64,000 bases of DNA. Source: Obrimoposthia wandeli. Taxonomy: Eukaryota. Shown here piece by piece: positions 9,705 to 55,645 of the stretch. Location: assembly GCA_977020255.1 (NCBI GenBank), contig CDROCS010000983.1, positions 186,001 to 250,000 of the forward strand, written 5' to 3'. The notes below the pieces were generated by a model. That model was not told the DNA's origin. It was given only the letters and a program-made list of their open reading frames with translations, and did no database searches. Position 1 is the stretch's first letter; every line of letters starts with the position of its first letter. The translations under genes were made by a program, and so were the position numbers.

Positions 9705-11574
9705 TGGGCATAACTTGAAGGTTATAGTGCTTATAAAATTTGAATTTTGCCCAATATTTACATCAGTAAAAAAATTAGCAGTGAGTGAAATTTCTCCGGA
9801 GATACCTCCAGTAGATCTTGAATCTACTGCTTTAGAAACTATAATTCGAAATTTTAGTAACCTTCTCTGAAACTAAGTGGGTTACATTTAAAAATAACTA
9901 ATGAATTCGGACTGACACTACACTTCTTGCGGCATTTCAAAATAATATTATTTTTTTAAAACTATAATATTTTTTATATTAACACACATTTATGATTTTG
10001 TAAAGATAACCATAGAATAGATTTCTTGTTGCATGATCCTGGTATTGTATCTTGTTATAGTAACTGTTCTTCCCTCTTTTTGAACAATTGAAACAAGCTT
10101 GTTTGTTTAATAAGTTGCAAATGGATCAAACACATACATTGTCATTATTTAACATAAATAGCTATCAATATTTCCTTGGCATATAAGAAATATCAGTATT
10201 GATAATGTAGCCTCCAAGTTTGAAATATAGAATCAGATCAATGTAGTAAACTCCATTGAAATTATCTTCCAATTATTATTCTGCCGATTCTTGCACTTAC
10301 ATTGAATTAGATTTTTTTTTAAAATTTACATTGTTTTTTACAATTTTTTTATATTTTAACAATTTTGTTTTTGTTGGTTTGTATCTCCGAATCAAATAAT
10401 CTGTAAATAAGCACTGTTGTAGGATTTGTTAAAGCGACAATGGATTTAATTTCTTAACGTTAATTTTCAGTTTTTGGTATTTGACATTAGTTTATGACAA
10501 AGTCTGATGCCAAAAGAAATATTAAGAATATACAGGGGATTTTAATCAATTATATAATTTTGACAGTTGTTTTGTTATTGCTCAAAAGTTGAACCTATAT
10601 ATTTTTATGACGATCGAAATAAATTTGATATTTTAGACACGATCAAGAAAAATAGAAAAATATTATTTTTAAAATCATTTATTCAAATCCAAAATTTCAT
10701 TCCATACACACATGCAAGGTTTTAAACTACAGAGGCATGCCTACTTCCTCTCTTTGGAGGAGGCAGAAGGGGTTGATCAAACTGGACAAATTCACCTGCT
10801 TATATATATTTATATATATAAATTTATATAAATAATTGTAACTGCTATTATTTACATTTTCCAATATTACATTTAAAATTAAACAAACAATTATTCAATC
10901 TTACAATATCAGTATAAAGCGATAAAACAAATGTATAGAACCAAATGTATTTAACAGATAATGTCATTATTCTTTGCAGTCACTGATATGCTTGAAATTC
11001 AGAATCCTTTGCCAATTTCTCAAAACTTGCTGGAATTGAAGTTGTGGCAACTCTCAAGTTGCATTCCAAGTGAAATTATGTAAGTCTTTTCATTATAAAA
11101 ACTACAAACATTTGTAGGAACTGCCGAACATTGAGGCATGTTTTCTGGCAAAATAGTATTAGTGGAAAGTTCATTAACGAAAGATAAAAGTAATAGTCTA
11201 ACAAAGGTAATATCCTGAATTTCTGTTGAAAATATAAATTGCTTTATTAAATTTTGATTTTATTATACTAATACTTTATGTTATTAACGATGACATTAAA
11301 TGTGGCCTTAAAAGACATTTTTGAAGTTGAATCTTAGAATTACTATAATAGTTGAATCTTTCTATTGGATTAATTTATACACGCGGCACAACTGCAATGT
11401 TGAGACAAATCACGGTAGGGCCGTCTATGAGAAGTAATCTGTTAAGTAGTCACAATTTAGATGACTACTTAAAAGTCGTTTTAAGTCTAACTCCAACAAT
11501 GCCTTTCTGCGCTCACTTTCGAAATTGTTTTCCAGACTGTATTGATAAGATAAGAAAGCTATATTCATAGTAAA

Positions 11575-17280: not shown

Positions 17281-17293
17281 AGAGTCAGAATTA

Positions 17294-21396: not shown

Positions 21397-21456
21397 AGAT
21401 CACACAACCACCAGTCCTCAATCGAGCCCAAATTCAACATCAACCCTCCCACAGTA

Positions 21457-23633: not shown

Positions 23634-23764
23634 AAATATATCCGAATAGCCGCGATCCAACATATTAGGAGAAGACGATCTCACGAGCGCTCCATACGGA
23701 ACTGCGTCGGACAGCTCACCCGTACCGGAATCAGCGAGTCACTGGTAAGAACACAGACTAGGTT

Positions 23765-24202: not shown

Positions 24203-24471
24203 GGTCAAACACACACAGAGAGAGTAAGGAACAAAGAAACATTTAGCTAGAGATAAGAAGTAGGAGCGAAGAAATTTAAGAGAGTTGCGTTATAGATTAA
24301 CCAACCTGAGTAAGAAGACTAAACCTAAGAAACTTAATCACCTGAACGTAAAATCGATACGTGGTTCATCCCCACTTCTTGTAGAGACTCACAGAAGTCC
24401 TTTAGGAATTTTATCATACTTTTTAGAAATACGTACATAAACGTATTGTGGTGTTAGTTACGTGAATTTTG

Positions 24472-24477
24472 AATAAA
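24472..24477 (+). terminator. Polyadenylation signal in LTR
   Basis: AATAAA followed by conserved ATTTCCTACATTAG; same arrangement at 28316 and 34569. Confidence 0.65.
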
Positions 24478-25429
24478 CAATTTCCTACATTAGAACAAGT
24501 TGTTTTTACACCCTTCAGACTAAGAGACATCAATCAAATACCTTCAGATAGTACAAGAGATTAGGCAACCATAACACTAAGTAGGCCACGACCAACTTTA
24601 AGACCTGCTTCTAATCGAACTCACGTTGGGGCCCTCCGCACACTAAGAGGCTCTATACCAAGTTTCGTATAGAAACCCCAACAATTTTATGACAAAATTA
24701 TATGAAATTCTTTATTATTTTCTTTAAACTAAAAGAAATATTTAAATTAAATTAATATAGATTTAGTCAATTTTACTGAAATATGTAAAGATTTTCAGTT
24801 TTTATTATTTATTTAGATTGTTGAATTAGTGTTTAATTATATTCTTTCATTTGTTTGATCTAAAATAGGGAGAATTTGACAATTGATGTACTACAAAATT
24901 GTGTTTACATTAAATATACATATATATATATATATATTGAACTATGGCATTTAAACAGTCCTCTCTTTTTTACTTAAGAGATAAATCTGAGATAATATTT
25001 TGATTTTATGTTTTCAATTTGTCATGTGATTTCAGTTAATCAAATTGAAAAGCTAAAATGGCTCCAACTGATCAATGTATTTTTATCGTTCCTCAATAAC
25101 TGTAAATATTACGTCGATAATTTTGTACAAAGAGTATGGATGTTTAAATTGCCTGTGACCTGTCAATTGATAAAACTCTACGTCCACTTACAAAATGAAG
25201 CGTACATGGCCTTCCTAAATCAGGTAGAACACAAATTTGTGATGAAAAGAAAGTTTAATACGATCTTTCTTTGTGTAAAATTCTAGTACATTAATAATAA
25301 AAACTTTCCATGAGCTACAAATCCCATATTACGGAATTAAATTACACGAAAGCGAGCTGGGTTAAAAGATTGCCGAATCAAATTGGTTCATGGACCAAAA
25401 GAAGATGAACATCTTGATGTGAAACGTAT

Positions 25430-32815: not shown

Positions 32816-34779
32816 TGTTAGGTTTAGGAATTAGAAAATTAAAATAATTAGTCGATTTTATACTAAAATAAAAATCCTTGAAAGCAAGGTTGAAAATTAA
32901 ATTAAATATTAATTTTAAAAATCAAAACTAAAATTATTGAAATTAAGATAAAAATTAGGAGGACCACGAAGGTCGTGTATAGTGTGGAGTATATAAGGTT
33001 AGAATTAATTACTAGTAAAGTGCAAAAGGGAACAATATAGAAATCTGCCAACGTCAGCAGAAAAAAGAAAAACTACTAACGTCAGCAGAAAGGTAACCAA
33101 TTAATAAAACATCTGTCAATTACTGATATTTAAGGAATCAGTTGAATTGACAGGCAGGCAGAAAAACCCAGTGACAATTAGGATCGGTCGAAGCAGCAAC
33201 CGGAGCAACAGGCAGGTGGTAATTTAGTGGTAGTGCTCGTTTAATTGATTTTTAGATCCCATTCCAAAGTCGACTGTGCAAATTATTTAAAAGAGACATT
33301 TAACTGGAAAACCCAACGACAATCAAAGTCGACTGTGCAAATTATTTAAAAGAGACATTTAACTGGAAAACCCAACGACTAGAAAAATCCATCGAATTAC
33401 TAAGCAGCGGATCCAGTGCCGGAGTATACCCACAGTTGCGGATAGGTGAGACGATTCGAATATTCATTGTCCCTCGTTGACAATTAGGATTGTAAATTGT
33501 CTCGAATATTCATTGTCCCTCGTTGACAATTAGGATTGTAAATTGTCTCGAATATTCATTGTCCCTCGTTGACAATTAGGATTGTAAATTGTCTCGAATA
33601 TTCATTGTCCCTCGTTGACAATTAGGATTGTAAATTGTCTCGAATATTCATTGTCCCTCGTTGACAATTAGGATTGTAAATTGTCTCGAATATTCATTGT
33701 CCCTCGTTGACAATTAGGATTGTAAATTGTCTCGAATATTCATTGTCCCTCGTTGACAATTAGGATTGTAAATTGTCTCGAATATTCATTGTCCCTCGTT
33801 GACAATTAGGATTTAATTGTCTCGCATATTCATTGTCCCTCGTTGACAATTAGGATTTAATTGTTTCGCATATTCATTGTCCCTCGTTGACAATTAGGAT
33901 TTTTGTCTCGCATATTCATTGTCCCTCGTTGACAATTAGGATTTTGTCTCGCATATTCATTGTCCCTCGTTGACAATTAGGATTTTTGTCTCGCATATTC
34001 ATTGTCCCTCGTTGACAATTAGGATTTAATTGTCTCGCATATTCATTGTCCCTCGTTGACAATTAGGATTTTTGTCTCGCATATTCATTGTCCTTCGTTG
34101 ACAATTAGGTTCACGAAATCATTGTCCATCGTTGACAATTAGGTTTTATACGAATCATTGTCCACAGTTGACAATTCGCGTTTGAATTCACAACAATAGA
34201 ATTTGCCGAGTTAAGAAAGCTTTACCCACACGATCTAAGTTAAGTTGAAGAAGTTTTAGGAGAGTTGTGTTATAAATTAACCAACCTAGAAAGAAGATTT
34301 GCATTCGCACCTTTATTGTCATAAGAATAAAGGTTTAACCTCCAAAATTCAAGCCGATAGCAAAGTTAAATTATTGAGAAATCTGTAGCGCGAGCTTATT
34401 CTCGAGTTAGAAGAATAACTCTAAAATCTCGATCACCCCGAACGTAAAATCGATACGTGGTTCATCCCCACTTGTTGTAGAGACTTACAGAAGTCTTAGG
34501 AACTTTTAATATATTTTTTAGAAAATACGTACATAAACGTATTGTTGTGTTTAGTTTCGTGAATTACCAATAAACGATTTCCTACATTAGAACAAGTTGT
34601 TTTTGCACCCTTCAGATTAAGAGACGTCAAAACAAACACCTTCAGATAAGAAAGAGAGATAGGCAACTATAACACTAAGTAGGCCACGACCAACTTTAAG
34701 ACCTGCTTCTATTCGAACTCACGTTGGGGCCCTCCACATTCAAGAGGATCTGTACAAGTTTCGTATAGAAACCCCAACA
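32816..34779 (+). mobile_element. Solo LTR C (1964 bp)
   Basis: TGTTAGG...CCCCAACA with 4-bp TSD AAAT (32812-32815, 34780-34783); ends closely similar to LTR A; 60-bp internal duplication at 33264-33380. Confidence 0.92.
33458..34175 (+). repeat. Tandem array of 17 hairpin repeats (core CATTGTCCCTCGTTGACAATT), 46-bp unit degrading to 44/42/41 bp
   Basis: Cores at 33463 then every 46 nt to 33785, shorter spacings afterwards; ATTGTC/GACAAT inverted arms. Confidence 0.95.
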
Positions 34780-35385
34780 AAATCACAAATACGTTTAAAA
34801 AGATTTAAATTATGATTTTATGTCTAAATTTAATTAAATTATTACTGTTTTTAAATAAAATTTATATATCAGAATCTGATGTAGATACTAAAGAGATTAT
34901 TATGGAAAATAATATTACAGATATAGATTATTTGAATCTTACTAAACTGCGAGCTTAAATACGTGGCTCTCAAAATATTTAAAATATGGAATTTTTTAAC
35001 TTTTTTGTATATTAGCTAGAATGATGCTATTTCGATAAAAAATTTAAATCTATATTGTATTTGTCACCTTCTAATATATAAATTGAAAATTATTTATTCT
35101 TAGACCATTTTATATTTAATCAACTTCTGTTAAGAAAATGATATACTGAATAATATTTTATCAAAAACTACTTTGAAAAAAATGCTTCAAAGAAAAATTT
35201 GTGTGAAAATATATTCTTTAAACTTATTTATCATAAGAAAAATTGCCAAAGTCTAAAAATCGAAAATAATCTCATAACATACTACAAGTTTTGATGATTT
35301 GTCATAAATATTATCTGCAAGTGTTGTGGTGTAAAGTCCAGCTGGATTTTCTGTGCTTTGGTGCAATTGAATAAATCATTCCATA

Positions 35386-35508: not shown

Positions 35509-36487
35509 CTATAATGACAAATTAATCAATTAATATAAATTTGGTGAGTGTAAACTTTTCACCCAGAATATTAGCAATAGTAGTGGCTTAAATTTTATTA
35601 AACTTCATTAGACAAAGTGAATAAATGATCTACTAATCAAATAGTGCTCGTATTGACGAATTACTTCCGGAATTATGAATGCTGAAATGTGTCAAAATAA
35701 AATTTTGAGTAATATAAAAGCACTTTATGAGTGTCTAGTTTTTCCTCGATACGTCTACAAATTAAAAAAAGGATTTAGCACAGTCAAGTACAGCAAGGCG
35801 AAAGCAAGATTATTTAAGAAGGGAAAATATAACTTTTTTATACTTGTCAGGGATTTCAACAGGTCTAAACCTTATCGAAATTATAGAAGGCAACATACTG
35901 AAACGCTTAGATTTATAGAAACATGATTCTGCAAATATTTGTTGAAAGACATACAAAAATTGTATTACATTTCTATAACAACCACCTGAAATCTGGTTAA
36001 ATTTATGCTTATAAGATTTAAATTGGTCAAGAAAAATGGTTAGCCTATAAAACACTAAACTTTGTAAACCTTTATTAAAACAAGCATTAGTAACGTTTTT
36101 CGTTCTATTTCCTATTTTTCTAGGAGGTTACGCTAACTTTTGACGAGTACTGTATTATTACTAACAAGACGGAATCAATATATTTATTATGTTTGTAACA
36201 TCTTTTGGGCTTCATCATATACTTTAAATAATCTTTTGTTTCGACTTGAAGCCACCTTCTTTTAAAAGCCGTTTTAATTTAGTAATTGAAAATTCCATTT
36301 AACTGAATTGCATATTCTAGTTAAATGCTGTGTATTAATAATAATAATAATTCAATACATTATTTGATCACAATATTTGCTAAAAAAATTATTTTTAATT
36401 AAAATATCGTTATTTTAAAATATTGAAAAATAATTAATAGAAAGTCTTATAAATATCGTTATTTTAAAATATTGAAAAATAATTAAT

Positions 36488-36616
36488 AGAAAGTCTTATA
36501 CGAAGAATGAAAAATTAAAGATAATCAAATTAGCAAAAGAAGCAAATATAATTCGTGCCACAGTGAACAAATCTTCAATAGATGAATCAAATATTAGAAG
36601 ATGGCTTAAGAATGAA
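36488..36616 (+). pseudogene. Brinker-type HTH, pogo-like transposase N-terminal relic
   Basis: RKSYTKNEKLKIIKLAKEANIIRA...IDESNIRRWLK matches the SYT-x2-FKLKVI...I-x-E-x2-VR-x-W pattern. Confidence 0.5.
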
Positions 36617-36764
36617 TCCAGTATGAGCGTTAAATTTATAAATTCCAGATCTCGAAGAATATGCATTTTAAAGTGGCTTGAATTAGAATAGAAAATACGA
36701 ACGTGGGTGGTTGAAATGCATTTGAAACGGAGTATAGTATCATCTGTGGATATTCAAGTATACA

Positions 36765-36875
36765 TGAAGGTGAATGTGTCATCTTTAATCCACCCCTGGA
36801 GGGGGAGAGGGCTACCACTGTTCATGTAAACCGTGCATGTGTGTGGCGTGAAACTTTATGCATGTGTAGGGGCAC
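36765..36875. mobile_element. Degenerate left-hand Polinton-type TIR (same family as 40682/43315/48642)
   Basis: TAATCCACCCC...GGGCTACCACTG...AACCGTGCATGTGTGTGG matches the TIR at 40700-40770. Confidence 0.6.
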
Positions 36876-39800
36876 ATACTTACATGTCAGACATTTAACA
36901 ATCTGTTATAATTGATGAAATTGTCTCAGAAACTGAATACTTTAAATGCGGAGCTCCTAAGTTTGATTCTTGGTCCAATCCGATTTTTGATTTAAACTTA
37001 GTCAATTGTAGCTATTAATAACAGATCAAATAATAATTTCTACTTTTATGCTGAAGACACAAATGTATTGGAAAATCTTATTAATCAAATAGTTATATGG
37101 ATGAAATCAAGATAATTCTTATTGAATGAAACTAAAGCTGAGGCTATATCACTTTTAAAAGAATAATATCAACAAACAAAAGGTTATATGCAAATTAGTA
37201 GAAAATTATTAAGATAAAATCTAAGATAAAAAATATTGATTGCGTTCACAAGGAAAACATCAGAATGAATTCTCAAAAATAGTGTATAGAACAGGAAAAA
37301 TTCATATCTAAAATATATAATTAAAAAGAAAATACCTTACTACTGAGATAACTAAAATGCCAGTACATACAATTATTTCATCAAGACTTAATTTTAAAAC
37401 AAATTTTGTTTAATATTCCAGCTTATCAATTAAATTGTTTACAAAACTGAATGAAGCTCAATATCAGAATTGAATTCAAGATCCTAATTATTATCAAAAA
37501 TATATTCTATCACACTTAAAACAAACAAGTAGTCTTCTCCAGTCTGTTGCAGTGAGAATGTTTTGCATCTTAGGAACAACGACGATGACTGCAGATTGGC
37601 CATAAATTCTTAAACAACAGAAGGATGCTAAATTTGAAATTTATGCTCCGAATCTGTACAATGATCTACTGATGAATATAATAATTATATATCATAATAG
37701 TTACCTATTGTGATATAATTGCATAGGAGCCAAAAATATAACTGGAATAAGTCCTTTTTATAATTGACACTAAATTATAATCGTATAACCGTATAACCGT
37801 GATCCAGAGTCTTTTTTAAATTTTAATTGACTAGCTTTTGACGTATGCCAGATATTGAACATTTACGTTACAGAATCATATTGTGATTTTAACCCGATTA
37901 GTTTTGTGTGGTTACATTTTATGTTTTGACATTTTACTATAACCTGTACTTTTAAGCCGTGTTTGTCGAAATTTTCTAAATGTATGAGTTAGAATTTTTG
38001 TCGGCCTGCGAAGCTATAAATGAAAATGAAATAAATTATTTAAATTCTTTTTATAGTATATTATACGTGTGAAGAGTGACTAGTTCAGCCAGTCAGACTA
38101 ACCTGTAATTTGTTTTCAAAAAACCCTCCAATGATACAGCAAAATAAAAGACCACTTCATGCTACCATTCATAGAATGTTCAGTATGCCTACAAATTGTG
38201 CTCCAACACCAAGAAAGAATTTTTGAATTATTCGTTAGGTCTTCGTAAATAATACGTTTTAATATGAATGTTTCAAAATCCGAGTGAGCATCAACGATAA
38301 TAGGGGGCTGGTTGTGAAATATATCAAAATAATCTTTAATTACCTTAGACATATGGATCAAACTTTTCACAGACACACACAGAAGTGTAAACTATGTAAG
38401 AAAATATTTAAGAAATACCTAAACAAATGGTCGATTAAAATCAATGACAATAATAATAAAAATGAAACTACCGTAAAATTTACATAATGAAATGATTAAT
38501 GAATTATAACTAATTATGGCAAAATTCAGGTCAGCTTTTTGTTTAACAATTTAAATATATATTAATCAAGCACAAATGCTACAGCCATCTGTGATTTCTC
38601 CAGAACCTTAGGAAGAAACTGAAACATTCATGTTATATTTCGGTTAATTAAACTAAACTAGATTTAGGAATCTACAGAATATTTATACACTAATAAGTTC
38701 CTTTTAAAGTGTTCTTGGGAAATTATGCATGGCTAATGGAAAGATACACAGATAGTCTATCACATTTTTCTAGATAGTTTAGATTGTCGCAGAGAAACAT
38801 TCACGCGGCATTTAAAAATTTTAAATTATTTTAGTATTTTATACAATATTTATTATAAAACAACGCATAAGAGATTAGTCAAAATATTAAAGGGATAAAA
38901 TATGTAAACTTTAAAACTTTTAATAACTAATTTATTTACCATAAAATAATGTGGCATGACTTGGTAGAAAAGAAAATTATATTCAAGAATAATAAAATTA
39001 TTTTGGTTGTAATTGTAATTTCTGACTTTACTCTTAATTTTTCGTCAAGTTCTTTCAGATTTAAAACATTTAAAATATTATTCAAGTCCAAACTAAATTC
39101 AAAACACAAAAGTGTTTTGTTGAATAAATCTGAAAATCTATGAAAATATGACAAAAATTGTAGGAAACGGTTAAGAATACCTAAATACTAAAAATACATA
39201 TGTGTATTTATAAAATATACTCAATGTTTTAAATCTTGAGATTGACACCGTTTGAACCAATCACATAGATGGAGAATAATTCAAACATACAAACAACATA
39301 TCATAAAAATTTTATATGGTTATCTAATTGTGTATTTAGTAAGTTAAATTGTATTATAATATTATACAATTATTTAATTCATGTGGGTAACTTATCATAA
39401 TTTAAAATGTTTAATTAGTTTTTATATATACCATCAATCAACTTTGATTCTAAAAAATGTTTTTATACTTTTCATTTATATAAACTTTTCACAGTTAAGG
39501 TTATTAATATTTAATTGAACAAAAGTATTTTGAGAATTTAAATTTAATCACATTTTAAATATAAGTTAGATTATCATGCGTTTTTTAATGTATGACTGTA
39601 CATGTCGTAGATGGGTATAGAAAAATTAGTTAGAGTCATTGTTGTACTATTTTAAAATGTACAAATATTTTAATCTTGGATGAACCGTTTGTCACAGGAA
39701 ATCTAACGGGGGAAAGGTCATACGCGGTATCTTCTAACTTAATCATTTGAATTTTAAAGGTTAATAATATTGAATTGGTGACGAATCTATAGATTTAAAA

Positions 39801-40681
39801 GAGGATATAAGTATTGAAAAGAATTAGAAGACTTTTTAAATGAGTAAAATTTCAAACTATATGCTTATTTAAGTTGTAAAATGTAATTTTAAATAGGTTT
39901 AATATATATAATTTTAAAATATGATTTTGTAGTCGGTCCAAAGAGGCGTAGGTAGAAGGCAGTTGAGTTGTTTTAATACCCTATGTTGAATTTATGGTTT
40001 TACATTAAAATTAAGCTTAAATCTGAAACTTTTCAAAATATTTGAGGTTAACGTATCATGCTGACCAATATTCAGTACATTTGTATAATACTACTAATAC
40101 TATATTTTTATTACTGGAATAGAAATACAACCCTTTTTACTCATAACTGTTACCACTACCTTAATTGGTCAAATGATCGATCGCAGATGCAATTGGGAAC
40201 GTTTGTATTTCCATATTTTTATTTTACACAAGATTCTCTAAATCTGATACAAATACGCACATTCAAAGTTAGCAGCTATTTCTTCTGAATTTCTGTTTAT
40301 TGACTAAAGACAACCTACATTAAGGTATAGTTATTAAGTATAACATGGGTGGCAAACAAGTTGATAGTGATAGAGAGGTCAATATCATCTAAATTGGTGG
40401 TTGATCACATTAAATAAAAATCGACCTCTTCTGACCAATAACATAATGTTAGAAATAAAAATAAGTATTGTTTGTAATAAACTGAATTACTTAAGCTTCT
40501 CTTATTATATATAATTAATACATATAACATAGTTACAATAAAAATGCAGATGTGCCCAAACACAAGTCATTTCTACAAATGCTGTAACGGACAACATAAT
40601 GATAAGGACACACAAAGGCGTTGTAGGAAAAACACGTTTGTTTTACTTTTCTGTCCAGAACCCTAGATCCCTGGCGACATA

Positions 40682-43315
40682 AGTAGGTGGATGTGTCCGG
40701 TCTAATCCACCCCTCTCCCCCTGTGGGGGCTACCACTGTCCTTTAAAACCGTGCATGTGTGTGGAGTGAAATTTTCTACCACCCTAACACTCAAAAAAAC
40801 CTAATTAACCCCATATAACACCCTGAAGCTGACGTGAGACGGCATCCTGTTGCCCTCGCGAATCTGGAAGCATTGCTGGTGTATCCTGTTCCGCTAGGAA
40901 TTCGTCCAATCCAGCTTCATCCCAGGCCCTCTTCAAGTTCTGGCTGGTTATTGGACGCGGAGAAGCCGTCTCCCAAGCCCTGGCCAAATTTTGGTTTATA
41001 CTCAATGTCTCCTACAGGCGTCGTTGACTCGGTGGCGGACTAATCTCGATCGGTGAGACTGGGATCCTCTCGTATAGAATTGGCCCGTCGTCCACTGGAG
41101 ATGGGAGAATCTACTACCGTCCAATCACCGCCTCAGAAGAATGGCAAATAGAGGTGCTACATTTTCTCGAGAACTTTTGCTCGCTTCGTCCGTTTCTTGG
41201 GAAAAGGAGTAATTTCTCCCCAAGTCTCCTCAATTATCCGGACGGGTTCCTGCAAAAAAAAACATTAATAACATTTTTAATAACATTTATTTATTTAAAA
41301 AATAATTAAATATCTAAAAATGTACCTCAATAATCTGATACGGAAGTTTTTCCTGTTGCTCTATCGATACCTCGGTCGATTTGAGCAGACAGGATTTCGC
41401 CTTTTTAAGGCGCCTCGTTTTCCGTACAGCAGCCCGCTTCGTTCGTTTCTGCGGGAAAGGATAAATTTTGCCCCACGTCTCCTCAGTTAATTGTATTGGT
41501 TCCTGCAACAAAAAACATCAATAAAATTTAAACATATAAATAATTTACCTCAATGACAGCCAGTTTAGGCTGTTTTACCAATTTGGCCTTCTTCCTGTGG
41601 ACTGTCTAAGTTTTGACCCGATGGCGTCGCGGTTTCCTCACTACCGCCTACTTCCTATAAGCGGGTAGTTTAAGAGTTGCCTCCTCCCAAATTTCCTCCT
41701 CCAAGTCGGCTTCCTATGAGAATAATTAAAATTATTATTTAATTTACAATAATTTACCTCAATTTTATCCGGAGTCGGTAGGTAACGCTGATCACTCCTG
41801 GGATCATCCTGGCTACATTGACTCGCCAAGTACTGCAGTTCAATTAGCCTCTCAATCGTGGTCACTGACGGTGCCAAATCCAGTTGCAGTTTCTGAAAAT
41901 AAAATTAAAAAACATTTTAAATAAATGATATCTAACCTCATTCGTCGCCTTTATTCTCCTAACAGAACGTATCGGAGATTGCGGCCTTCTAAACGGTTCA
42001 GGGACCGTATTGTCGGCTGTCGGAGTTGGAGTTGCAGAGGGAGTGAGACCGTCCCAATCGTCGGTGAACAGGTGCCACTCGTCCTCATCCAATTCTGCCA
42101 CCATTGACTCGTTGTCTCCTGGGGCTCCGATACTTGGTTGTATCCATTCGTCGATGAATGGAGTCAAGTCCTCCTCCCCATCCGACGGTACGTCATCGGT
42201 GATCAGCTCCTCGTCTGAGTCTGGTGCGAGGACTATCTCCGGCTGAGATAGCGGGATCAATTTCCAGGGGCGTTTGATTGCTGCCGCAAAATTGTCGAAG
42301 AGATTGGATCTCCTTGCTGCTACTGCCGAAGTTGCTGGACGAGTAGCTTCTGGGTTCTGAACGGGAGTACAGTCTTCCCAATTCTCAATCGAATCCTGAC
42401 TAGTCAGGTCGATATATTGGGATCTCTGTACTCCACCTCTCACCTCCATTGGTTCTTCTCTTAGAGTTGAGCTGGCCAATGGCGCTTCTTCTTTTAACAG
42501 CTCCGCTCTTTCTGCTGCTTCTCCTTCGTCTCCTTCGCTCACCACCGACGAGTCTTGACTAAGTAAGTCAATGTACCGCGCCGATGGTGGCGTTTGCTGC
42601 TGTACTGGAGAGAGATCCCCATACAGTTGAACCTCCATCTCTTCGCCTAGGTCAACGTTGTTGTAGAATGGCATTCTTGATTTATGATTTTGATTTATGA
42701 AAAATAATGAAAAGAGGTTTCCTTATATACAAAAACAACAGACTAACTCTCTTTTGTCGTCCAATCAGAGCGGGTTATTCAAATAATTTATTTGAAAAAT
42801 CCATAGGCTTTTCTCAATTTTTTAACTACGTTTGAATGCGAGAATATCATTGAATAAAAATAATTATTCGAAAATAGTACTATTTTCTTAAGTTTTTGTT
42901 GACTGAGTTCAATGTCCAATGAGTGTGTATTATTCAAATAATTTATTTGAAAATTTATAGTATTTTCTTAATTTTTTGTTGATGATTGAATACATTTATA
43001 TCTTTTGATTTAAAATAGTAATATTTTGTTGACTGTACATGTTTGGAGGGTATAATGTAAGAAAAACTAGCCTTTTGAGTGTATCTGGATATAAATTCTT
43101 AAAAGGAAATTTTTCGCGACCCTGTATATATGTATTGCTCGTCAGGCCACCTGGAGGGATTTTCAATTTTAAATGGTGTTATATGGGGGTAATTATTTTT
43201 TTTTAGTGTTGGGGGGTAGAAAATTTCACTCCACGCACATGCACGGTTTTAAGGGACAGTTGTAGCCCCCGGGTGAGGGGGAGGGGGTGCATTAGACCGA
43301 ACACATCCACCTACT
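40682..43315. mobile_element. Non-autonomous Polinton/Maverick-like element (2634 bp) with cargo gene
   Basis: ~141-bp TIRs (40682-40822, 43175-43315) starting AGTAGG and ending CCTACT; exact 6-bp TSD GACATA (40676-40681, 43316-43321). Confidence 0.88.
41157..42674 (-). CDS. Cargo gene, 5 phase-0 exons; acidic disordered protein with SIM-like motifs and basic repeats; TAG in exon 3
   Basis: Exons 42674-41937, 41892-41758, 41713-41549, 41502-41326, 41249-41157 with GT-AG introns of 44, 44, 46, 76 nt; in-frame TAG at 41650-41648 gives 312 aa. Confidence 0.7.
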
Positions 43316-45329
43316 GACATATCCCTTGTTGTGGACCTGCCAGTAGCGGTGGTTTCTTGGTATGTGGTTCGACGCCAACCAACTTCATTGATGCCCGAAT
43401 CGTTGCACGGATGTTGATCATCCGTAATCGTCTGTTTCATTGTGGGATGTGGTTTCGTTGTTGAGGATCAATGTAGCATATAATTAGGCGTCCAAGAAAA
43501 AAAAACATCACATAAGACCATCGTTGTCATTTGGGTTTCGAATCATACTTTCAGATAAGCTTCTCCAGAGTATCCGCTCCAGATTTAGTGGAGTTGTAAA
43601 ATTGTACAACAATGCGTTTGCCTTCCAATTGGTTTTGTTTAGACCAATGTGATATGATAGAAGAAGAACGGGTTACTTTTTTTATCCCAGAATGAATATA
43701 GCACATTGTTATTCTCGGATAAGTGAACTGTTTCGTCCTCTATCCTGTTTGCTGTACTTCTTGCTGTATGTGGAATTTCACGTCGGTTCGATCTTATGTT
43801 TCATACTATAGTCGTTTTTGAGCAAGCAAATGCATGGACAGTTTTAGTTAAAGAAATAAGTTATCAGCTGTCACGTTTTGTCAAGTTTTAAGAAACGTCA
43901 TAGCTAGCTTCATTTCTATTGCCTCAGAAATGGAGTACACTATATATTTTTCTTGAGAAGATAGAGTGTCATTACCGATGTAATCAAAGGGAATGTGTTG
44001 TTGTCAGTCACCCAATAAATCATAATGCCAAATTTACCCGGTTTTGTAGGTATGTATTGTCTAAAGCGTATGCAGCCACAGCAAAGAATGGTCTCGGTGA
44101 AAAATTGTTTTGCAAAGCATCGTTGATTAGAGTGACAGTACTTCTTAACGAAGCATGTTTTTTCGATATATGATACGGATAGATACATGCAGTTCAAGAA
44201 GAGCATTAATTTCTTCTTTGTTAGTATTGTGCTATTTTATGGCAGGATGCTCTCTGAAGATTTCTTTTTGGTATTGTAGGTTTCTATACATTGTCTCGGC
44301 GACGATATAATCATCAAGAAAGGTGCTAAGAGCTTCCAAAGGTGATTGTGGGTGTAATATATCACGAAAATTAAAATCTAATTAATTCAGCATATATTAA
44401 AATGACTTTAAACATTATTTTCCAAACTATTAAAGTATTTTACCTTAAATCTCTAATGATAGGCCCAACTGGGCACGTCTGAATTATAAAATATACAATT
44501 TTAATTAAGAAAAGTGCCCAGTGAGAAGATTAGCTTGGGTTGCCTTCCAACAGCTTGTGTGCTACGACCAGTTTATTCCATTTGAAGAAACAAGATATAG
44601 ATCATTGTGGTGATCTCCATCGGATTCCTCTTCGTATCCAATTACAATTTCATCATCTTCTTCATCAGTTGTATTTCCTATCCTGTATAATATATCTTCA
44701 TCTAATATTTCATCATCACTGGTGGTGTTATTATCACTCAGTTATCCAGTATCGTCGAATATTGCTGGTCTCTCCACTTCCATAACTACATGACCTGGCA
44801 TAGTCTCCACTAATTCGTCTTCGTCTTCAACATCTAAGATATTATGCAATTCAACATCACGTACATATATAGCGTTTCATATGTGTGCGACGTGCTATCA
44901 TAAAAAAACTAATATTATAATGTATAAATGTTTCAAAATATTACAGTTACTACAGATTGTTAACTAAACATTAGCAATTTATAAAAGAAACCATACGTTT
45001 GTATAAATTTAATATACTAAATAATTGATGCCAATTATATAAAACCCAGCTTACCATTTAGTAGATTACATTTATGATAAACTATCAAATTGATTTTATT
45101 GGTTCAATTATTTTTTTAGTATTTTCAATGAGTTTCAATGAATTATAAATGTTTATTGCAAATTTCTCTTTCATATAACTTGTATCTAGAAATAAAATAT
45201 TTTAATTTCAATTAATATAAATAATTTTTTCAAGTTTTCACTTTTGCGCTTGTTTAGTTAAATAAACATCTAACATCGTTGAAAATTCCAGCTTAGAATT
45301 GTCAATTTTTAATTTAATGCTATATTATT

Positions 45330-45830
45330 TTTGTAATGTAAATACTTGTTTATTTCTAAAATAATAAATTGAACATGTTTAGGAGTTGTTTAAAGCATTA
45401 AAAGTGACTTTTTCTCTCTTTTGAGCCATCAGATTCAAATACACAAACATAATGATTACCAATGTTTTGAAATAATTTGACGTTTGTATTTATGATTCCA
45501 TGGATTTAATTTATAAAAGTTTTATTTTATTTCTATGAAAATTCCCAACCAAACATCTTAGATCCACATCAATATAAGCACATTATTTATTTTACTATTG
45601 TAGTTTTCAAATATAACAAATTTTGGGTTTATGGAAGTAATTTAGACAATCACATAAAATTCAATGGAGAATCTTATTCATTTTTATTATATTAAATTTT
45701 CGCCACATCGAAATAGTTTTTAACACGTGCCAGATAATATATTTAAATTAGATTGGCAAATTGGAGATTTTGGTGCTTACGTATTATACGTTTGTTAAAA
45801 AACATAACTGGTCGGATGAGCTAGTATTCT
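45330..45830 (-). pseudogene. Possible second pPolB relic (C-terminal part)
   Basis: Weak similarity only (HQNLQF; YIDVD; LVGNF); highly decayed. Confidence 0.3.
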
Positions 45831-46561
45831 TGTTTAATAACATTATGTTTTTCTTTTAACAGTGACTCATTGCTAGACTCAATAATCCAGCAAATATATG
45901 TACGTGTAACTGATTTCGGTAAATCTATAAAATCAAAGTTTAATGTTAATTGGATGCTAATGACTGACTCTATCACATATTATCATTTTCTCACCCATCA
46001 CCCACTCACCCATGATTCCTTCCTAACTAAAGTATTTTATTCCTGGTGTGCTTATGAATTGATTTCTAAATTAGTTGTATTTAGCATTTTGTGATGGCAT
46101 ATTGTAATGATCATAAATATATAAACTTTTAAACAAAATTGATCATTTTCAAATGCATATTTGAACTATAATGATATTCTTATCTTATATAATAATTTGA
46201 TTAAATAATTTTAAAAAACAAAAAAATAATTTATTACGTTATTGTAACAGGATAGGATAAAAAAGAAGGAGCATAAAAAGAAGAAAGCTCCAAGGAAGAA
46301 TAAGGCTTCAATACAGTCAACTTCAAGTTGCATCACCTCCCAAAATATTGCGTCCACTATTGCCCAAGCTCCCAGGGACTGCAATTCCTCCACCAGTGAT
46401 TGTGCAGCTGAATAGGAAGCTGGGCTGACCAAAGAAGAAGCAGTTGTACCTCATGAACATCGCCCACTAGGAATATTGCTGAGGATGATCCCGATGATGA
46501 CTTTGTTAAATGTTTAAATGTTTAAATAATGACTGAACTTGCTGATTAAAAAATTCTTTTC

Positions 46562-47016
46562 CTAAACCGGTTTGCATATTTTGCGGGATGATTTTTTAAA
46601 TATTTCTTTAATGGCTCCAAGAATAGCAATTGAAAACTTTGCTTTAACTGGAACTGCATGAGCAAATCTGCTAAATACATCAATGCATGTTAAAATATAT
46701 ATGTATCCCTTATTAATGGAATAATAAGGAATCATCTCCATCAAATCCATTTGATATAAATAATTAGGTCTGCTGGTATTGTATGCTCAATCTGGAAACC
46801 TTCTCCTCGTCGGCTTGTTCAGACATAGGTTAACTGATCGCTCAGCCAGCTCTGCGTTTTCTTGTAATCCTGCTTGTTTCTTTTTGCAAATTGTGAAACT
46901 TCTGTAATTTTTGTAAACAAATTATTAAAGTCTGATTCCTTGTTAGCTTCCTGATACAAATCATCAGTAATAATTACATCTTTTTTAGAAATATTATTTA
47001 CTATAATTTGCATCAA
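46562..47016 (-). pseudogene. Polinton-type integrase relic
   Basis: QSWLSDQLTY..RRRF..YQMDLMEM..NKGYIYILTCIDVFSRFAHAVPVKAK matches Polinton integrase N-terminus and first catalytic Asp region. Confidence 0.8.
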
Positions 47017-47224
47017 ATCATTAAATTAATTTTATTCCATTCAACTTGCAAACTTCTGTTTGAGTTAGTCCACTATCCATTCCTCCACCATGATGCCAAA
47101 AAATGTTTTTGAATCTGGAATTGAAAAGAGTTTCATTTTGTAGCAAATTACATACGAAATATGTCTTTCTACTTCGAAATAAGATTAGATAAGAAAACTA
47201 TATTCATATTAAACACATGCAGAT

Positions 47225-47450
47225 ACTAAATTTCCATATATCAATATACCTTATGGTGTCTTCTACTTCATGTACGAGATTGTTTGTGCGACACTACCTT
47301 GTGGTTTCCCAGGCTGTGACAGCATTTTATGAGTATGTCCAGAGTATTAGAAAGGTAAATATTATATTTTCTGGTACTTCAATTTCCACCAAAAATTCAG
47401 AAACTTTAATTGGGTAAATTATTTTTATAATGCATACATCCACTTTTTAA
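47225..47450 (-). mobile_element. Dispersed repeat, copy 2 (copy 1 at ~11575-11830)
   Basis: Shared GGTGTCTTCTACTTCATGTA, TGTGACAGCATTTT and ATACATCCACTTTT blocks. Confidence 0.6.
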
Positions 47451-48529
47451 TCATTCGAAAAATTATTAATTTAAACGAGTTTGTTAATAGAAAAGATAAC
47501 AAAATCTAATACAAAAATTCTAAATCGATTTAACAGTGCATTGATAATCCAATTGATAATTCTCAATCCTGAAATCATAACTTTTCCAGTGGAAATATAT
47601 TTATACATAGCGTGTAAACTTCAAATATTTGAGTGCAGGAAACATTTCAGGTTAAAACATGCATTCTTCTTTTATTTTCCGTCATTTTATAAAGATTTAT
47701 TGGTTTCCCAACTGCATTTGATTGTATGGAAATGATTTGAATTTCAAATGGTAAATTGATTTCATTCAACGGTGTATTGCATCCCATAACACGACAACTT
47801 CCTAAAAACATTAATATGAAAAGACAATAAAAACTAACCTGAAAGAAAAACAACAACTGTAAAATCATCAAACTTTTTCAGATATTCTCTCGGCTTCTAA
47901 TCATTGAATGATAAGTGTGAAATATCATCTTATATTCTTCCTTTATAATTTATTTTTACAAGTTTCATTAGACTAAAATTGTTTCTTTATATATGTCTGA
48001 ACTTGCCTTTTATTGCATATTTCTTGTAAATATCTTACAAACCTATTATAATTGGATGATTGAAATCTAATATATTTCTTTCAATAAATTTCAATTTTAA
48101 ATATGGATTTAGTCCAATCATATTGTACAGCAAAATACAGCCTCTTAGGACTTTGAGTTAAGCTAATATGGTGTTTATATTTTCTATTTTAATAAATGTT
48201 TTAAAATTAATTTTGTCATGCATTTTGTTGTTTTCCTCATATATACCTAAAGTGAAGCTAATATGATGTTTTATTTTTTTAATTAAATATTTTGAAATTA
48301 ATGTTGTATTATTTTTCTAATAAAAATATATAAGTCTGATCTACATATTTTTGTTCTTCTAACAGGTATAAAAATGTAGTCATTTATTCCTACAAAATTA
48401 TTATTTTAAATCGCATCTACGATAAGTCAATGAGGTCAATATGAATTCTTGTGGACTTATTTAATCACTTTTGGGGTCGGATAAGAAATTCACAAAAAAA
48501 ATGGTCGTGTTACCTCCCATCGACTGGAC

Positions 48530-48642
48530 ACATATGCACGAAATTTCAGTCCACACACATGCACAGCTTTACAAACAGTGGTACCCTCTTCTCTGTCGGG
48601 GTGAATAACGGTGGATTAGACCGGACACATGCACCTACTACT
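48530..48642. mobile_element. Right-hand Polinton-type TIR
   Basis: GGATTAGACCGGACACATGCACCTACTACT; reverse complement begins AGTAGTAGGTG; homologous to the TIRs at 40682 and 36765. Confidence 0.7.
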
Positions 48643-50997
48643 GACACTTACAGTATTCGCCATAATTATTGCACATATTATATAAAATTATGAAATCATA
48701 TATAAGAATCTTAGATATACATAATTGAACTATATTCAATAAATAATTAAAACCGTGATAAATTACCATGTTTAATATAAAATTCATAATTTTGTATAAA
48801 TAAATTCATTTGAAGAAAAGATTTCAACTTATGCCTGGTCATAATTATTGCCCGTTTTATAAATCTTCATTTAAAAGAAAATAATAGAAATATAATGAAA
48901 GCGTTTGAATCTTTTATTTAAGATATAGCATTAATACTTTGTTTGGTAACCGTTTGAAGCTCTTATGACACTAAGACATTGATGTAGAGATGCATAAAGA
49001 ATTAATCGTAATTTTGTTTCATTCCTGGAATATAGGACATCTGAAGTAAATTTTAGAAAATTGTTTTTTACCGAGATATTATTTTCAATATTTCCATCAA
49101 ATTTTCTATTATATTAATGTGCAGTGACTGTGGGGTTAATCTAACATTTACATAAAATGTGAATTATCAAAGTAATTCATAGTTATATCAGATGAATGGC
49201 AACTAGCGCTATCTTGCGTAAAGGCGTTATTTGCATTGTAAAAGTTATTAATTCCACCTTCTAAAACTCATATGTATTTCGTTGAATCTAACCTAATTCC
49301 ACAAAGGTTCATTATTCTTATCCTTTGATAGCACCACATACCATAATAGATAAAGTGGCATATTTCACGATTTTGAATCATATCGGTAAACAAATCTTTT
49401 GTTAGTAAGTTATCTTACTAATTTGCTAACATATAAGTTCTTTGTTATCCTGATTTCATCTGAAACAAAATGACTTTTTCCCAGTTTTAAACTAAAAATT
49501 CCCCGTAAGTAATCACAAACAACATTCTCATTCTTTTATTTTTAACGATATTTCTGACTTCACAGGAGCTTTTCGTGAAAATAAACTTCTTTTTTTTAAA
49601 TGCTAAAGTTTCTTAACGAATTATTATTTTCCAAAGTAACCTTCTCATTTATCTCTTTAGTACTCTAAAATGGATCTTTAATTGATTCTCGACAAATAAT
49701 TCTTTTATTTTATTATTGTTTTGCATCTTCTTCAGGTTCTTTAGTATTAATAATGTTTCCTGCATTAATTATTTAGTTATTATCCTACTTGTGGTAGTTC
49801 AATGAATTCTGAGACATTTCAAAATGTATGTATGACTTTTTCCTTGTTCAACCATAAATATCGCAGTCCATCTTTTATTTTGCTTCATTTTCATTTTTTC
49901 TAAATAAAAGAGATAATAATAAAATAAATTGTCTGTTAAATAAATGCATAAAATAACACAATTAAGACATGTCACAATACTGTAAAATAATTTGGTAAAT
50001 AAAACAAGTGCAATAAATTTGTCCATCCAAAAATACGCTATATCTATCAAATAAAATATTTATCTTTAACTCTTGCATTCATATATTGAAATTGTCTATA
50101 AAAGTTAATTTAATTCTTTAATTAATTATTTCTTCAGGTTTATTGCTTCATATTTTTTGTGAAAACTAATATTTAAAACGAAGTGCAATATTTATGGCAA
50201 AAACTGTATAAGCACATATTCCCCATTCAGAAGTTCTAGGTTAAGTTATCGGAGAGATTGCAAGGTGTAATAGTTCAGATGTAGAATGCGCGATTTGCAA
50301 GTAGTGAAACCACTGATTAAATTTTCATCGCATCAGCTAATTTGATATCAAACCTAACATTTGGTACCTCCATGATTTGGACTCTAAATGATCTTATAGC
50401 TTGAGGACAGGCCTAATCTAAGGGGGTGATATATTAAGATAAATATTTGATAAAAATCCGTTTCTGACAATTAAAAGTGCATAATCCCTACTCAAAAATT
50501 CTGAGTTGGTTTATTGTGAGAAATTACGAACCATAGTTCGTCAGTAATAAAATGCGCATCTTTCAAGTAGTGATACCCGTGATCCAATTCCCTGTTGCGG
50601 CAAATTATTTGCTCCCGAACATTACACGTGTATGCTTTTACATTGAAATCATTAAATATCGACTAAAATTTATATAATTAAATAAAAATGTAGAAAAAAT
50701 ACATATTTTTGTTGAATTAATTGAAATTAAAAAAAATAAACCTACTTAAAAATAGTTACATTTTAAGAAATCAATTCAAACTTATATATTTGTTTCCACA
50801 CTTATAAAAAAATTCAAATATGAATGATAAATAAAGTAAAATATATTTTTAATAAATATTGAAAAAGTTGAAATAAATTCAAAAGATTTTCTTCGCTAAA
50901 AATATATTTTGTCGTTTTGAATTTGTTACATCCTCTTCTGTCTGAGTATATTTTGGAAATTCTTTTTTATTAACATTTGCAAACGTTATTAACGATA

Positions 50998-51752
50998 AGT
51001 AGGTACTTTGATGGAGTCTAGACCACTGGGGGGGTCCCCCCTTGTGTGCGCACACCAAGTTAAATGGTGTCACACCATAGAAATGTCACACCATAAGGGT
51101 GTCACACCATAAGGGTATATGTTGCCTCACCATAGGGGTGTCTTGCCACACCATAAGGTCTGGCTCAGAAAGGTTATGAAGGTTTGAAGGTATGGTCGTG
51201 ACCGTCTATGGTCGGCCAACATACCAAAGGGGTTGTGGTCGTCCATAAATCAAAGGGTCGGACTCAGTTTTGACTTGAAGGTTTGAAGGTATGGTCATGA
51301 CCATCTATGGTCGACCAACATACCCAAGGGGTTGTGGTCGTCCATAGATGAAAGGGTTGGGGTCAGTTTGGACTTGAATGTTTGAAGGTATAATTGAGGT
51401 CAACTATGGTTGACCAACACATCTAAAGGGTCATGGACGTCCATAAATCAAAGGGTCGGGCTAAAGACAAATTCAAGTTTAAAATATCAAGGTTTGAATA
51501 CATGGTTGGAATCATCTTTAAAAGACGACTTCATCCATATAGGTATGGTTGTCCATAGATGAAGGGTTAAAAAAATTGGAATTTCATAGTTTCAAGTACA
51601 TGGTTGTATTTGTCAACATATTACGAGTTTAATCATGTAAAAATTTTATGGTCGTCCACAAGTTAAGGGTCAAATTTGGAAAAACATGATAATTATATTA
51701 TATGGTTGTAATTGTCTATGAAAATTGAGTTCAAATATACTCTTAAAGTCAT
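50998..51752. mobile_element. Left-hand Polinton-type terminal repeat (family of 1653-2279) with TCACACCATA repeats and three 99-bp units
   Basis: Starts AGTAGGTAC; 99-bp units at 51181, 51280, 51379; inverted homolog of 1653-2279. Confidence 0.65.
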
Positions 51753-52179
51753 GCATGAAGAAATAAATTGAATATTCATATTATATTAATAAGACAATGG
51801 CAAAAATATCAAGTAATTAAAAAATAAAATTGTTTGTTGAGTTAATTTACTAAATTTGTATATAAATATATTTTCGAATAGTACAAAAGAGAAACGAATA
51901 ATGATAATTTCAATTATATTTACGAATATAATTGTATAATCGAGTTATTTAAAAATAAAGAATTTAAATTAAACTAATTATTTTAAAATATTTCAATTAA
52001 GGAATTTTATCAAACGAGATAAGACATTTTAATTATTTAATTGCATGAGTATGTATGAAAGGTTAACTTTAACATGGAGGTAAACTATGTGAAAATATGA
52101 AAGTTCACATCTTAATTATTATAACTTCATCAGGTTGTTACATCATCTTCATTGATTGATAGTATTAATTTAATAATTA

Positions 52180-53400: not shown

Positions 53401-54787
53401 ATCGGAAAGAATGTATAAAGAATGGATTTTCTTACTTTGCAAATGTTATTCACTTGAGTTTGAAGATGATATTATGAAATTACATAATAAATATGTTTAA
53501 TTTTGTATTATTTTCTGACTTCTTTCTTATTTTTTTTTATTTTAATATATAATTTATGTTATTTAAAGAAATTTTATCATAATTCTTTAGATGTGTAAGC
53601 CTAGGAAAAAAAAACATTGATCTAAGTTTTCACATAGAATAGTGTGTGTGTTAAAAACCACATTCCTTAACTGATAAGAGTGAACTTTATACTAAATTTT
53701 CACATAGAATAGTGTGTGTGATTACGTAATACATTGAGTGAGTGAACTTTCACATAGAATAATTGATTGATAGATGTGTTGGTACTTTAATATTTAAAAA
53801 TTTGTAAAATAAAACAATATTTGAAGTTTTATTGCTTGACGGATTCTCTAATAGGAAACCAACCAATCTCTTTTAGTTTATTATAAAACTACGGCATTTT
53901 AAAACTTTTTAGGACCAAGTGTACGGCTCTGTTGTGAATCATTTGCCGTTTCCTTAAGTAGCATTCTGAAATATTGTATAAGAGTGAATTTTTAAAATCT
54001 AGTTTAGATGATGAAATACTTTCTGTAATTAACATTTGAATTTTCGTATTTCAAGTATTATTCTTCAGTTCAAAGTTGCATATCTTGGCTGTTTTGATTA
54101 TTTGTCGAATCATAGTCAGATTTTAGTTGATAACACATCCAATATTTTACCCAAAATGTCATATTTAATCAAGTGTTCATCGACTTTGATACCTGATTTA
54201 ATTACCTTGAAGTTGTAAATATTCTTTGTTGAACCACAGAGAATAGCTCTAGTTGTGAATTCGTTGAGTTTTAAGCATTCTGATTTCATTCATTTGTAAC
54301 GTCTTTTCAAATACAATTAACTTTATTCAAAGTGTTTAAATAATCACAAATATCGAATTCAACATGGTAGTTGATCTCATGATTCGACAATACATCTTCT
54401 AATTTCGTTGAATTCATAGATGTTTCTTTATTACATATATAGTCAAATTGTATTAGTACGTTTTAAAATAATCGGTTAAATTCTTAGTATGTGATAATTT
54501 TCAACACGCCTCCTGCAGAAGATTCGTCCCTGAGTACAGTAATATTATTAATGAATTATATCAATAATAAAAATTATTTTCATCTTATTCAGGATACTTA
54601 GCTAACTTAGGATACTTAGCTATATTACCGATTTCCAAAATGCATTGAGTGATAACAATGCAACTTTCTTAAATTTAGTGTGAGATTTTCTCTACTTAAT
54701 TAAATGAAGTAAATTCTGACTTTTATCATTATTCTGAGGACAATTCTTTGTGAATGGTCAAGGCAACTTGAAGTGGATTTGACTCAC

Positions 54788-55645
54788 TGGATTGAGACTG
54801 AAGGTGAGCCGCATGGCGTACTTCTTCCAGATGTTGCTGCCGATGGCCTTGCCATAAGTGTCGGAGGCATACTCGAACCAGTAGAGACTTACGCATATAG
54901 CGTAGATGATCATGTTGGTACACATGGCGATGCTGCCGCGTGAGCGCTTCATGACCTTCTTCATCTCCTCCTGGTTGCCGGTGAGCGTGACAATGCGCAA
55001 CAGAATACCGAGGTAGATGACTAGGCTTAGTACAATCGGTATATACTGGAAGAGCATATTGCGCAGCAGATCGATGGCCGGCGTTATAGAGCTCTCACGA
55101 CAGTCACCAATGATGGGGTCCATGTCGTACCAGAACAGCCAGACGATGCCACCGTAGAAGTAGACCATAACCGGCACGATGACGAAACAGACGTAGGCAA
55201 TTGCCACGAACCGATAGCTGCTCATGTGCTGCCGGTAGAAGATTGGGAAAAAGACGCCGAATAGCTTGTAGATGGCAACGAGGGTCTGACCGTAGTTGGA
55301 CACCGACAGAGCCTGGATGAAGATGCCGGCCTCGAACATACAGAAGTCGTCGTTACCGACCACGATTCGGTGCTTGAGCAGCATGAACGTCTGGACACAC
55401 TCAAATGGCAGGCAGAAAACGTTAGTCACGAAGTCGGAGATGATGACGCCTAGCAGGATCCGATAATTGGGATACTTCCATAGTGCCGAAAAATGTCGGA
55501 TCACGTACATGAAGAAGATGTTGCCGACCACCCCGAAAATGGCACCTGCGATGCTTAGCGCCAGCCACAGATCGATTAACTCGTACGTGTCTGACAGCTG
55601 AGTGTTGCTTCCATTCGACTTTTCTGTTTTCGTCTGGTTGTCCAT
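54788..55645 (-). CDS. Rhodopsin-like (class A) orphan GPCR, main exon (TM1-TM7)
   Basis: Seven hydrophobic segments; N-glycosylation sequons NQT/NGS; GN in TM1, D in TM2, Cys at top of TM3 and in ECL2, P in TM5; ends LNP followed by GTGAGT donor. Confidence 0.85.

Follow-up and report, generated by a model that had tools for sequence, protein, structure and literature searches.

How does a segment of only 2.6 kb come to have Polinton-like ends placed around what appears to be a single spliced gene? We considered this question for the element at 40682-43315 (2634 nt) of a 64-kb window, i.e., the whole stretch of DNA that was analysed here. A preliminary description had read it as a Polinton-type insertion into a piggyBac element and, beyond that, as a MITE-like satellite that is kept for, or spreads, a single accessory gene.

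The insertion and its ends

The element begins with AGTAGG at 40682 and ends with CCTACT at 43315. A copy of GACATA (plus strand) lies directly outside it on either side, at 40676..40681 on the left and at 43316..43321 on the right, and two 6-mers drawn at random from the window were identical with a probability of 0.0006 (200,000 draws). The terminal inverted repeats (TIRs) are 141 nt long each: the left one (40682..40822, plus strand), which begins AGTAGG and whose inner edge is a putative deletion junction, aligned with the right one (43175..43315, minus strand) over 144 columns at 88% identity (blastn E 6e-44), with 11 substitutions and 4 gap events, 3 of the latter being single bases in homopolymers. 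The AG...CT termini, the TIRs of ~141 bp and the exact 6-bp target site duplication (TSD) of the preliminary description were all recovered.

When the element and one GACATA were excised, the reconstructed empty site gave an open frame reading ..PQQGICRQGSRVLDRKVKQTC.., formed by the two flanks. The right flank (43322..44850, minus strand, far limit approximate) holds the N-terminal and core part of a decayed piggyBac-type transposase, rich in stops and frame breaks, which matched the transposase model DDE_Tnp_1_7 with 19.1 bits (E 0.00085), under the cut-off of 22.4. The left flank (40554..40681, minus strand) encodes a Cys/His-rich C-terminal transposase tail, in frame across the reconstructed site; it had no Pfam match, and we take it to be the piggyBac Cys-rich domain. 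The TTAA ends of the interrupted host element were searched for and not located. Taken together, the matching ends, the GACATA copies and the restored frame indicate a true insertion into a piggyBac element that is now dead. The earlier claim that removing the element rejoins a piggyBac Cys-rich domain thus held for the open frame and, below cut-off, for the transposase in the right flank, whereas the Cys-rich label itself drew no Pfam match.

Pfam searches of the element in all six frames (E<=1) returned no family, which is a weak test because a degraded pPolB-like relic in the window (~2400-6250) was likewise missed. Within this limit, and with integrase queries (see below) matching elsewhere only, the interior is free of pPolB, integrase and capsid genes, as had been stated. 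With no Pfam match inside the element, the Polinton case rests on the ends, and three related copies of the end sequence were found elsewhere in the window (identities are given against the left TIR, counted over columns aligned within the first 94 nt). One of them (48541..48642, minus strand, AGTAGTAGG.., 0.88 identity), located 5.2 kb rightward of the element, agrees with the left TIR at 29 of the first 30 nt. A left-type end at 36765..36858 (plus strand, 0.80 identity) is more decayed and is its possible partner, and the third (10691..10800, minus strand, 0.84 identity) lies outside the pPolB-like relic.

An integrase remnant (46556..46912, minus strand; rve E 1.6e-6) is found 1.7 kb inside the end at 48541..48642. 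Homologues of this remnant were recovered in 64 matches among 123 candidates (best E 8e-24), and these are standalone rve proteins, mostly of 330-390 aa and many with a chromodomain, a layout that we take to be that of the Polinton integrase type. Used as queries against the window, the 64 integrases matched solely outside the element.

A 6-bp TSD and (AGT)2 ends are the pattern reported for vertebrate Mavericks (PMC8097293), and typical Polinton TIRs are given as 100-1500 bp (10.1101/2023.08.22.554363). The 141-nt TIRs of the element fall within this range, and its 6-bp TSD also matches. Polinton termini are given as (AGT)2 or (AG)3; the AGTAGG present at both ends is one base off the exact (AGT)2 (5 of 6 positions), and at 48642 the related end shows AGTAGTAGG. 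Polinton-type integration is thus borne out by the TSD, by the TIR length and by an end type that the element has in common with the rve integrase remnant. Because related ends adjoin that remnant, the Polinton origin is firmer than the preliminary description could show, and the sequence supports the view that the ends of the element are Polinton ends, that it is of Polinton origin and that it truly inserted here. Having neither pPolB nor an rve integrase, it would be a derivative and not an autonomous Polinton.

A predicted spliced gene and its decay

The interior is predicted to carry a minus-strand gene with a putative start ATG at 42674, ~500 nt inside the right end. Upstream of this start lies a core-promoter-like block (42700..42765, minus strand) with CCAAT at 42761-42765, TATATAA at 42723-42729 and an initiator-like TCATT, which we assume to be a CCAAT box, a TATA box and an initiator, respectively. 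Also upstream, a pair of AT-rich repeats (42759-42862 and 42914-43017) proved 75% identical on sequence comparison. The coding part of exon 1 (41937..42674) is open for 246 codons; any open frame occurred at a frequency of 5e-5 in 20,000 shuffles. It is followed by intron 1 (41893..41936, 44 nt), exon 2 (41758..41892, 45 codons, open), intron 2 (41714..41757, 44 nt), exon 3 (41549..41713, 55 codons with 2 in-frame TAG), intron 3 (41503..41548, 46 nt), exon 4 (41326..41502, 59 codons, open), intron 4 (41250..41325, 76 nt, GC 0.12) and exon 5 (40823..41249), all on the minus strand and predicted from the sequence. The four predicted introns are GT-AG and in phase 0, with a GC content of 0.11-0.17 compared to 0.46-0.53 in the exons.

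Exons 3-5 share a basic repeat: exon 4 carries one copy with NLS-like K-R-x-K motifs, exon 3 appears by eye to be a diverged copy, and exon 5 begins with a third copy before continuing as a Ser/Pro-rich frame into the left TIR. Exon 4 and the start of exon 5 are 80% identical over 98 nt, and the donor context of intron 2, ATTGAG/GTAAATTAT, is identical to that of intron 3. We therefore attribute part of the exon count to tandem exon-intron duplication. The frame of exon 5 is fixed by its internal repeat, in which differences at codon positions 1/2/3 number 1/2/5. Of the five-exon gene with its own promoter that had been described, the exons, the introns and the TATA/CCAAT block were thus predicted again, yet the gene is broken and incomplete.

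In addition to the 2 TAG in exon 3, exon 5 bears 3 TAG, its frame breaks near 41157, and its coding sequence adjoins the left TIR at 40822/40823. On this side a GC-rich frame leads straight into the TIR, whereas the right TIR gives way to AT-rich non-coding DNA. No AATAAA was found on the gene strand beyond 41295. Since the last exon runs into the left TIR with no poly(A) signal, we read 40822/40823 as a deletion junction.

The TIRs differ by ~8% in substitutions, which amounts to ~4% per copy on the assumption that the element inserted with identical TIRs. A neutral simulation at 4%, covering substitutions only, gave 2.7 expected stops versus the 5 seen (P(>=5)=0.14, 3000 runs) and left exon 1 open with P=0.32; the stop count fits this model, and no selection is required to explain the stops. 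Set against the 4 gap events in 144 TIR columns, the single frame break in ~1.6 kb of exon hints at some selection, or at an older asymmetry between the TIRs. The repeats within the gene tell of an earlier period: the two copies of YIDL(L/T)SQDS in exon 1 differ by 5 synonymous versus 1 non-synonymous codon differences, the differences between exons 4 and 5 fall on codon positions 1/2/3 as 6/5/13, and those in the internal repeat of exon 5 as 1/2/5, patterns which argue that the gene was formerly under protein-level selection. As judged from its sequence, this evidence fits a cargo gene that was truncated at its 3' side and now decays about as fast as neutral DNA.

As a side observation, all five premature stops in the cargo frame (41549-41713 and 40823-41155) are TAG, where 45% would be expected for each under the null, possibly reflecting a mutational bias. 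The idea that TAG is a sense codon in the host was rejected: window frames of 1163, 816 and 484 codons are without TAG, and among new stops TAG is the most probable (45%).

With a net charge of -0.13 per residue, the product of exon 1 is acidic, and it is predicted to be disordered. Five of the six coding segments fall below the charge-hydropathy boundary, and a single-sequence structure model of exon 1, weak evidence at a pLDDT of 50, has one helix with the rest unfolded. Within exon 1 we noticed the twin motifs YIDLLSQDS and YIDLTSQDS, with cores YIDLL at residues 34-38 and YIDLT at residues 87-91 and with SQDS after each core. Both match the form of a type-B SUMO-binding motif (SIM), that is, a VIDLT-like core with an acidic or phosphorylatable flank. 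The strict type-B pattern [VILFY][VI]DLT occurred in 0.24% of 100,000 shuffles; the call is motif-only, and a relaxed two-copy test was picked after the motif had been noticed. The Tyr at the first position of both motifs departs from the aliphatic hhXh consensus of SIMs; Tyr is acceptable at the first position of the type-B form. The type-B SIM has been described as 'VIDLT' (PMC4161520), and SIMs with acidic or phosphorylated flanks are reported to be used by herpesviral proteins (PMC8616421). Exons 3-5, for their part, are basic, with K-R/K-x-K motifs.

Homologues of exon 1 were sought among 3747 candidates of 430-2000 aa, with none found, and Pfam and NCBIfam gave nothing meaningful; the best Atlas match (0.78) is unnamed. 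Exons 2-5 had no match in Pfam, the sole set searched. Two matches of exon 1 among 1.84 billion representatives were rejected as sums of weak repeats (per-domain <=4.5 bits), and a prokaryotic origin was rejected upon 0 matches of the element in bacterial and archaeal genomes and phages.

As predicted from these features, the cargo protein is a disordered orphan that has two SUMO-binding-like motifs, once conserved, together with basic repeats derived from exon duplication. Tentatively, and with some doubt on our side, the product of the intact gene may have been a disordered nuclear SUMO-binding regulator that countered SUMO-dependent silencing. In such a scheme, the two type-B-like SIMs would bind SUMO-modified host proteins, the basic repeats would give nuclear localisation, and the intact protein would work like viral immediate-early proteins against SUMO-dependent silencing.

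Known systems and the origin of the element

With animal Polintons/Mavericks of the adintovirus type the element shares AGT-type ends, TIRs, a 6-bp TSD, a linked rve integrase and decay in place; these are 13-25 kb long with core genes, whereas the element has 2.6 kb, no core gene and the AGTAGG hexamer. Its gene has predicted introns, in contrast to the intact genes of vertebrate Mavericks, which are described as intronless (PMC8097293). In nematode Mavericks, a high-GC region of 2-5 kb with intron-bearing genes is reported to be common between TIR and integrase (10.1101/2022.07.12.499685), and its cargo (wasp/wosp proteases, krma kinases) resembles ours in being TIR-adjacent, high in GC relative to the rest, poorly conserved and equipped with introns. 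That cargo consists of enzymes and is ascribed to host origin or horizontal transfer; here, however, a disordered linear-motif protein is the sole content left between the TIRs, and exon 1 is without a homologue in the sets searched. By analogy, the element looks like a nematode Maverick cargo region that has lost, by deletion, all that lay behind it. Such a relic is nothing unusual, since most Polinton copies are decayed, and an end-proximal, GC-rich, intron-bearing cargo region was already known from nematode Mavericks. What would be new is the type of cargo, a spliced, end-proximal Polinton gene for a motif-based disordered protein and not for an enzyme.

Adintovirus Oncoid genes, as characterized in PMC8502044, likewise encode accessory proteins of low similarity with short linear motifs and many CK2-type sites. 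They are defined by an LxCxE or CR1 motif with a CK2 site and paired CxxC, and no LxCxE, CR1 or CxxC was present in the six surviving coding segments (the 3' part being lost); the cargo instead has SIM-like motifs and duplicated basic exons. HSV-1 ICP0 and KSHV K-bZIP (PMC8616421) are comparable only in how they work, being nuclear viral proteins in which a SIM core is followed by acidic residues and Ser; they have no sequence relation to the cargo, whose surviving part has neither a RING nor a bZIP domain. If the twin motifs do bind SUMO, Polintons would join herpes-type viruses as carriers of SUMO-directed regulators, and such a cargo, if true, would bear on Polinton escape from germline silencing; SUMO is reported to act in piRNA-guided silencing (10.1101/533091). 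A phrase search of the literature on non-autonomous, mini or defective Polintons returned Tlr1 only, and among the matches listed there was neither a 2-3-kb gene-bearing Polinton derivative nor a link between Polintons and SUMO.

As to how the element arose, we regard it as on balance probable that it is an internally deleted Polinton, with the deletion made in place and the accessory gene a passenger. An rve-type integrase would have inserted a Polinton at the 3' end of the piggyBac transposase gene, which gave rise to the 6-bp duplication. A large part of the interior would then, most likely post-insertion, have been deleted, fusing the last cargo exon to the inner side of the far TIR and removing the polymerase, integrase and capsid genes in the same step, and the remainder (both ends, the promoter and the 5' part of the cargo gene) would have decayed neutrally. 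We infer both the deletion at 40822/40823 and its timing. The adjacent Polinton relics in the window decayed in place too, and Mavericks are reported to be mostly fossils (96% in vertebrates; PMC8097293). Polinton remnants of several sizes are described in C. elegans (10.1101/2024.01.15.575659) and in the Hessian fly (PMC8504770).

Both ends, a perfect TSD and one clean junction are, however, equally expected of a derivative mobilised in trans, and the completeness of the ends and the single, clean junction speak for it. Here the deletion would have occurred during extrachromosomal replication, as in a defective-interfering genome, and the 2.6-kb molecule, with both origins retained, would have been copied and integrated in trans by the polymerase and integrase of a helper, as a non-autonomous family member with the gene fragment as a passive load. 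Short non-autonomous Polinton families, such as those of zebrafish in repeat libraries (Repbase), favour this course of events. So do the mobile polB-less Polintons reported in butterflies (10.1101/2025.02.07.637071), which are likewise TIR-bounded derivatives without a core replication gene, though they measure at least 12 kb, still have other core genes as well as a cargo of TEs, and have their mobility documented by population data. Against it, the window holds a single copy: tblastx found no second copy of the interior in the 64 kb at E<=1, and blastn gave 18 short matches, the 15 listed being <=42 nt. Moreover, the three other ends in the window surround different interiors, 2.3 kb of useless interior would be prone to loss in an amplifying family, and a report on Anolis describes non-autonomous Polintons as not seen there (PMC3014272). 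We thus consider mobilisation in trans possible but rather doubtful. Should the junction recur genome-wide, it would define minimal Polinton cis-acting ends, which on one side would not exceed 141 nt, and provide a natural test of Polinton trans-mobilisation.

Readings in which the gene matters to the spread of the element fare worse. A one-gene satellite, kept or spread for a cargo useful to the element, the helper or the host, would have its gene end inside the left TIR, where an in-frame stop is indeed present; no lesion affects the promoter, the start or any of the four introns, the frame is open through exons 1, 2 and 4, and there is a single frame break. Yet the five premature stops, that very frame break, the missing poly(A) signal and a lesion count close to neutral, together with the failure of exon 1 to find any homologue in 1.84 billion representatives bar the two spurious repeat-summed matches, make such a satellite very improbable. 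The preliminary description had proposed it in MITE-like form, and this we no longer uphold: the gene is cut at its 3' side, its decay is neutral-like, and the window holds one interior copy. The satellite reading is also unsupported here because a GC-rich, intron-bearing, TIR-adjacent region is normal in full-length nematode Mavericks. MITEs are short, non-coding and have highly similar TIRs, whereas the element has 2634 nt, a gene remnant and TIRs that are 8% diverged. Also unlikely by a wide measure is a miniature-Polinton family that was copied in trans, amplified at 2.6 kb and once expressed a twin-SIM anti-silencing protein for itself and its helper, with an aged copy left here. Least credible to us is membership in a different cut-and-paste superfamily (e.g., Ginger), as a non-autonomous element with a captured host gene fragment. 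In its favour, the element codes for no protein diagnostic of Polintons, and Ginger1 elements are described as 2.6-7 kb long with TIRs of 40-270 bp and introns (PMC2836005), but the same source gives Ginger ends as TGT with a TSD of 4-5 bp, as opposed to AGT and 6 bp here, and ends of this type also flank the remnant of a standalone rve integrase and the pPolB-like relic (the latter weak by the tools used).

Neighbouring relics and other features of the window

The ends at 36765 and 48642 face each other, and the sequence they share runs slightly past the point at which the TIRs of the inner element diverge. From its sequence, 36765-48642 may be an older Polinton relic into which first the piggyBac element and then the 2.6-kb element were inserted, in a three-level nesting; no TSD was found around this end pair, and no Rfam family in 36000-49500. 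Outside the end at 48642 (48640-48648), ACT is followed by GACACT, which resembles GACATA at 4 of 6 positions, by chance or by a weak target preference. A 290-nt segment, 78% identical between its two copies (11544-11834 and 47183-47452), is common to the surroundings of two Polinton relics.

A decayed Polinton relic at 2400-10800 comprises an integrase fragment (2284-2409, plus strand), an exonuclease-like fragment (7777-8073) and the end at 10691-10800. Its decayed frame of 4 kb (~2400-6250) is presumably a protein-primed polymerase with an endonuclease VII insert, going by its motifs. This pPolB-like frame matched 0 of 283 candidates and no polymerase in Pfam; endonuclease VII was found at E 0.086, and Atlas clusters of DNA-polymerase N-termini at 0.90 with low recognition, both weak. 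The remnant of a second spliced low-complexity gene, with AT-rich introns of 45-70 nt and a Cys-rich start, lies at 6255-7348 (minus strand). It has repeated CCAAT boxes and TATATAAG, and its last exon leads, with one stop on the way and no change of frame, into the pPolB-like frame at 5796-6254, an Oncoid-like position. No protein similarity was found between this gene and the cargo, and a promoter likeness of the two, which gave the top non-self match of the window (score 42, the next being 36), was rejected, as 1 of 12 shuffled queries also scored 42 and most scored 36-40.

At 59874-63315, a different inverted pair of 30 nt with AGT-repeat ends encloses 3.4 kb. The fragment at 60329-60559 within it resembles, as we take it, the beginning of the major capsid protein of Polintons; Pfam, PDB and NCBIfam gave this fragment no support, and no TSD was seen at the pair. 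Possibly, 59874-63315 is a second shrunken Polinton.

The window further contains a large Gypsy-type retroelement (12353-22632), in which the reverse transcriptase, RNase H and integrase precede two domains of dual-specificity phosphatases and a RING finger. A GC-rich frame of 307 codons at 54758-55681 (minus strand) has the look of a seven-transmembrane receptor by eye, with 0 matches in Pfam and NCBIfam. An inverted pair (1655-2163 and 51146-51756), 77% identical over 480 nt, lies 49 kb apart with ~100-nt subrepeats in each member. Finally, two related segments ~10 kb apart carry tandem arrays of 24 nt and of 42-46 nt (23437-24320 and 33455-34300), and the segments 24308-24684 and 34404-34780 are 88% identical.
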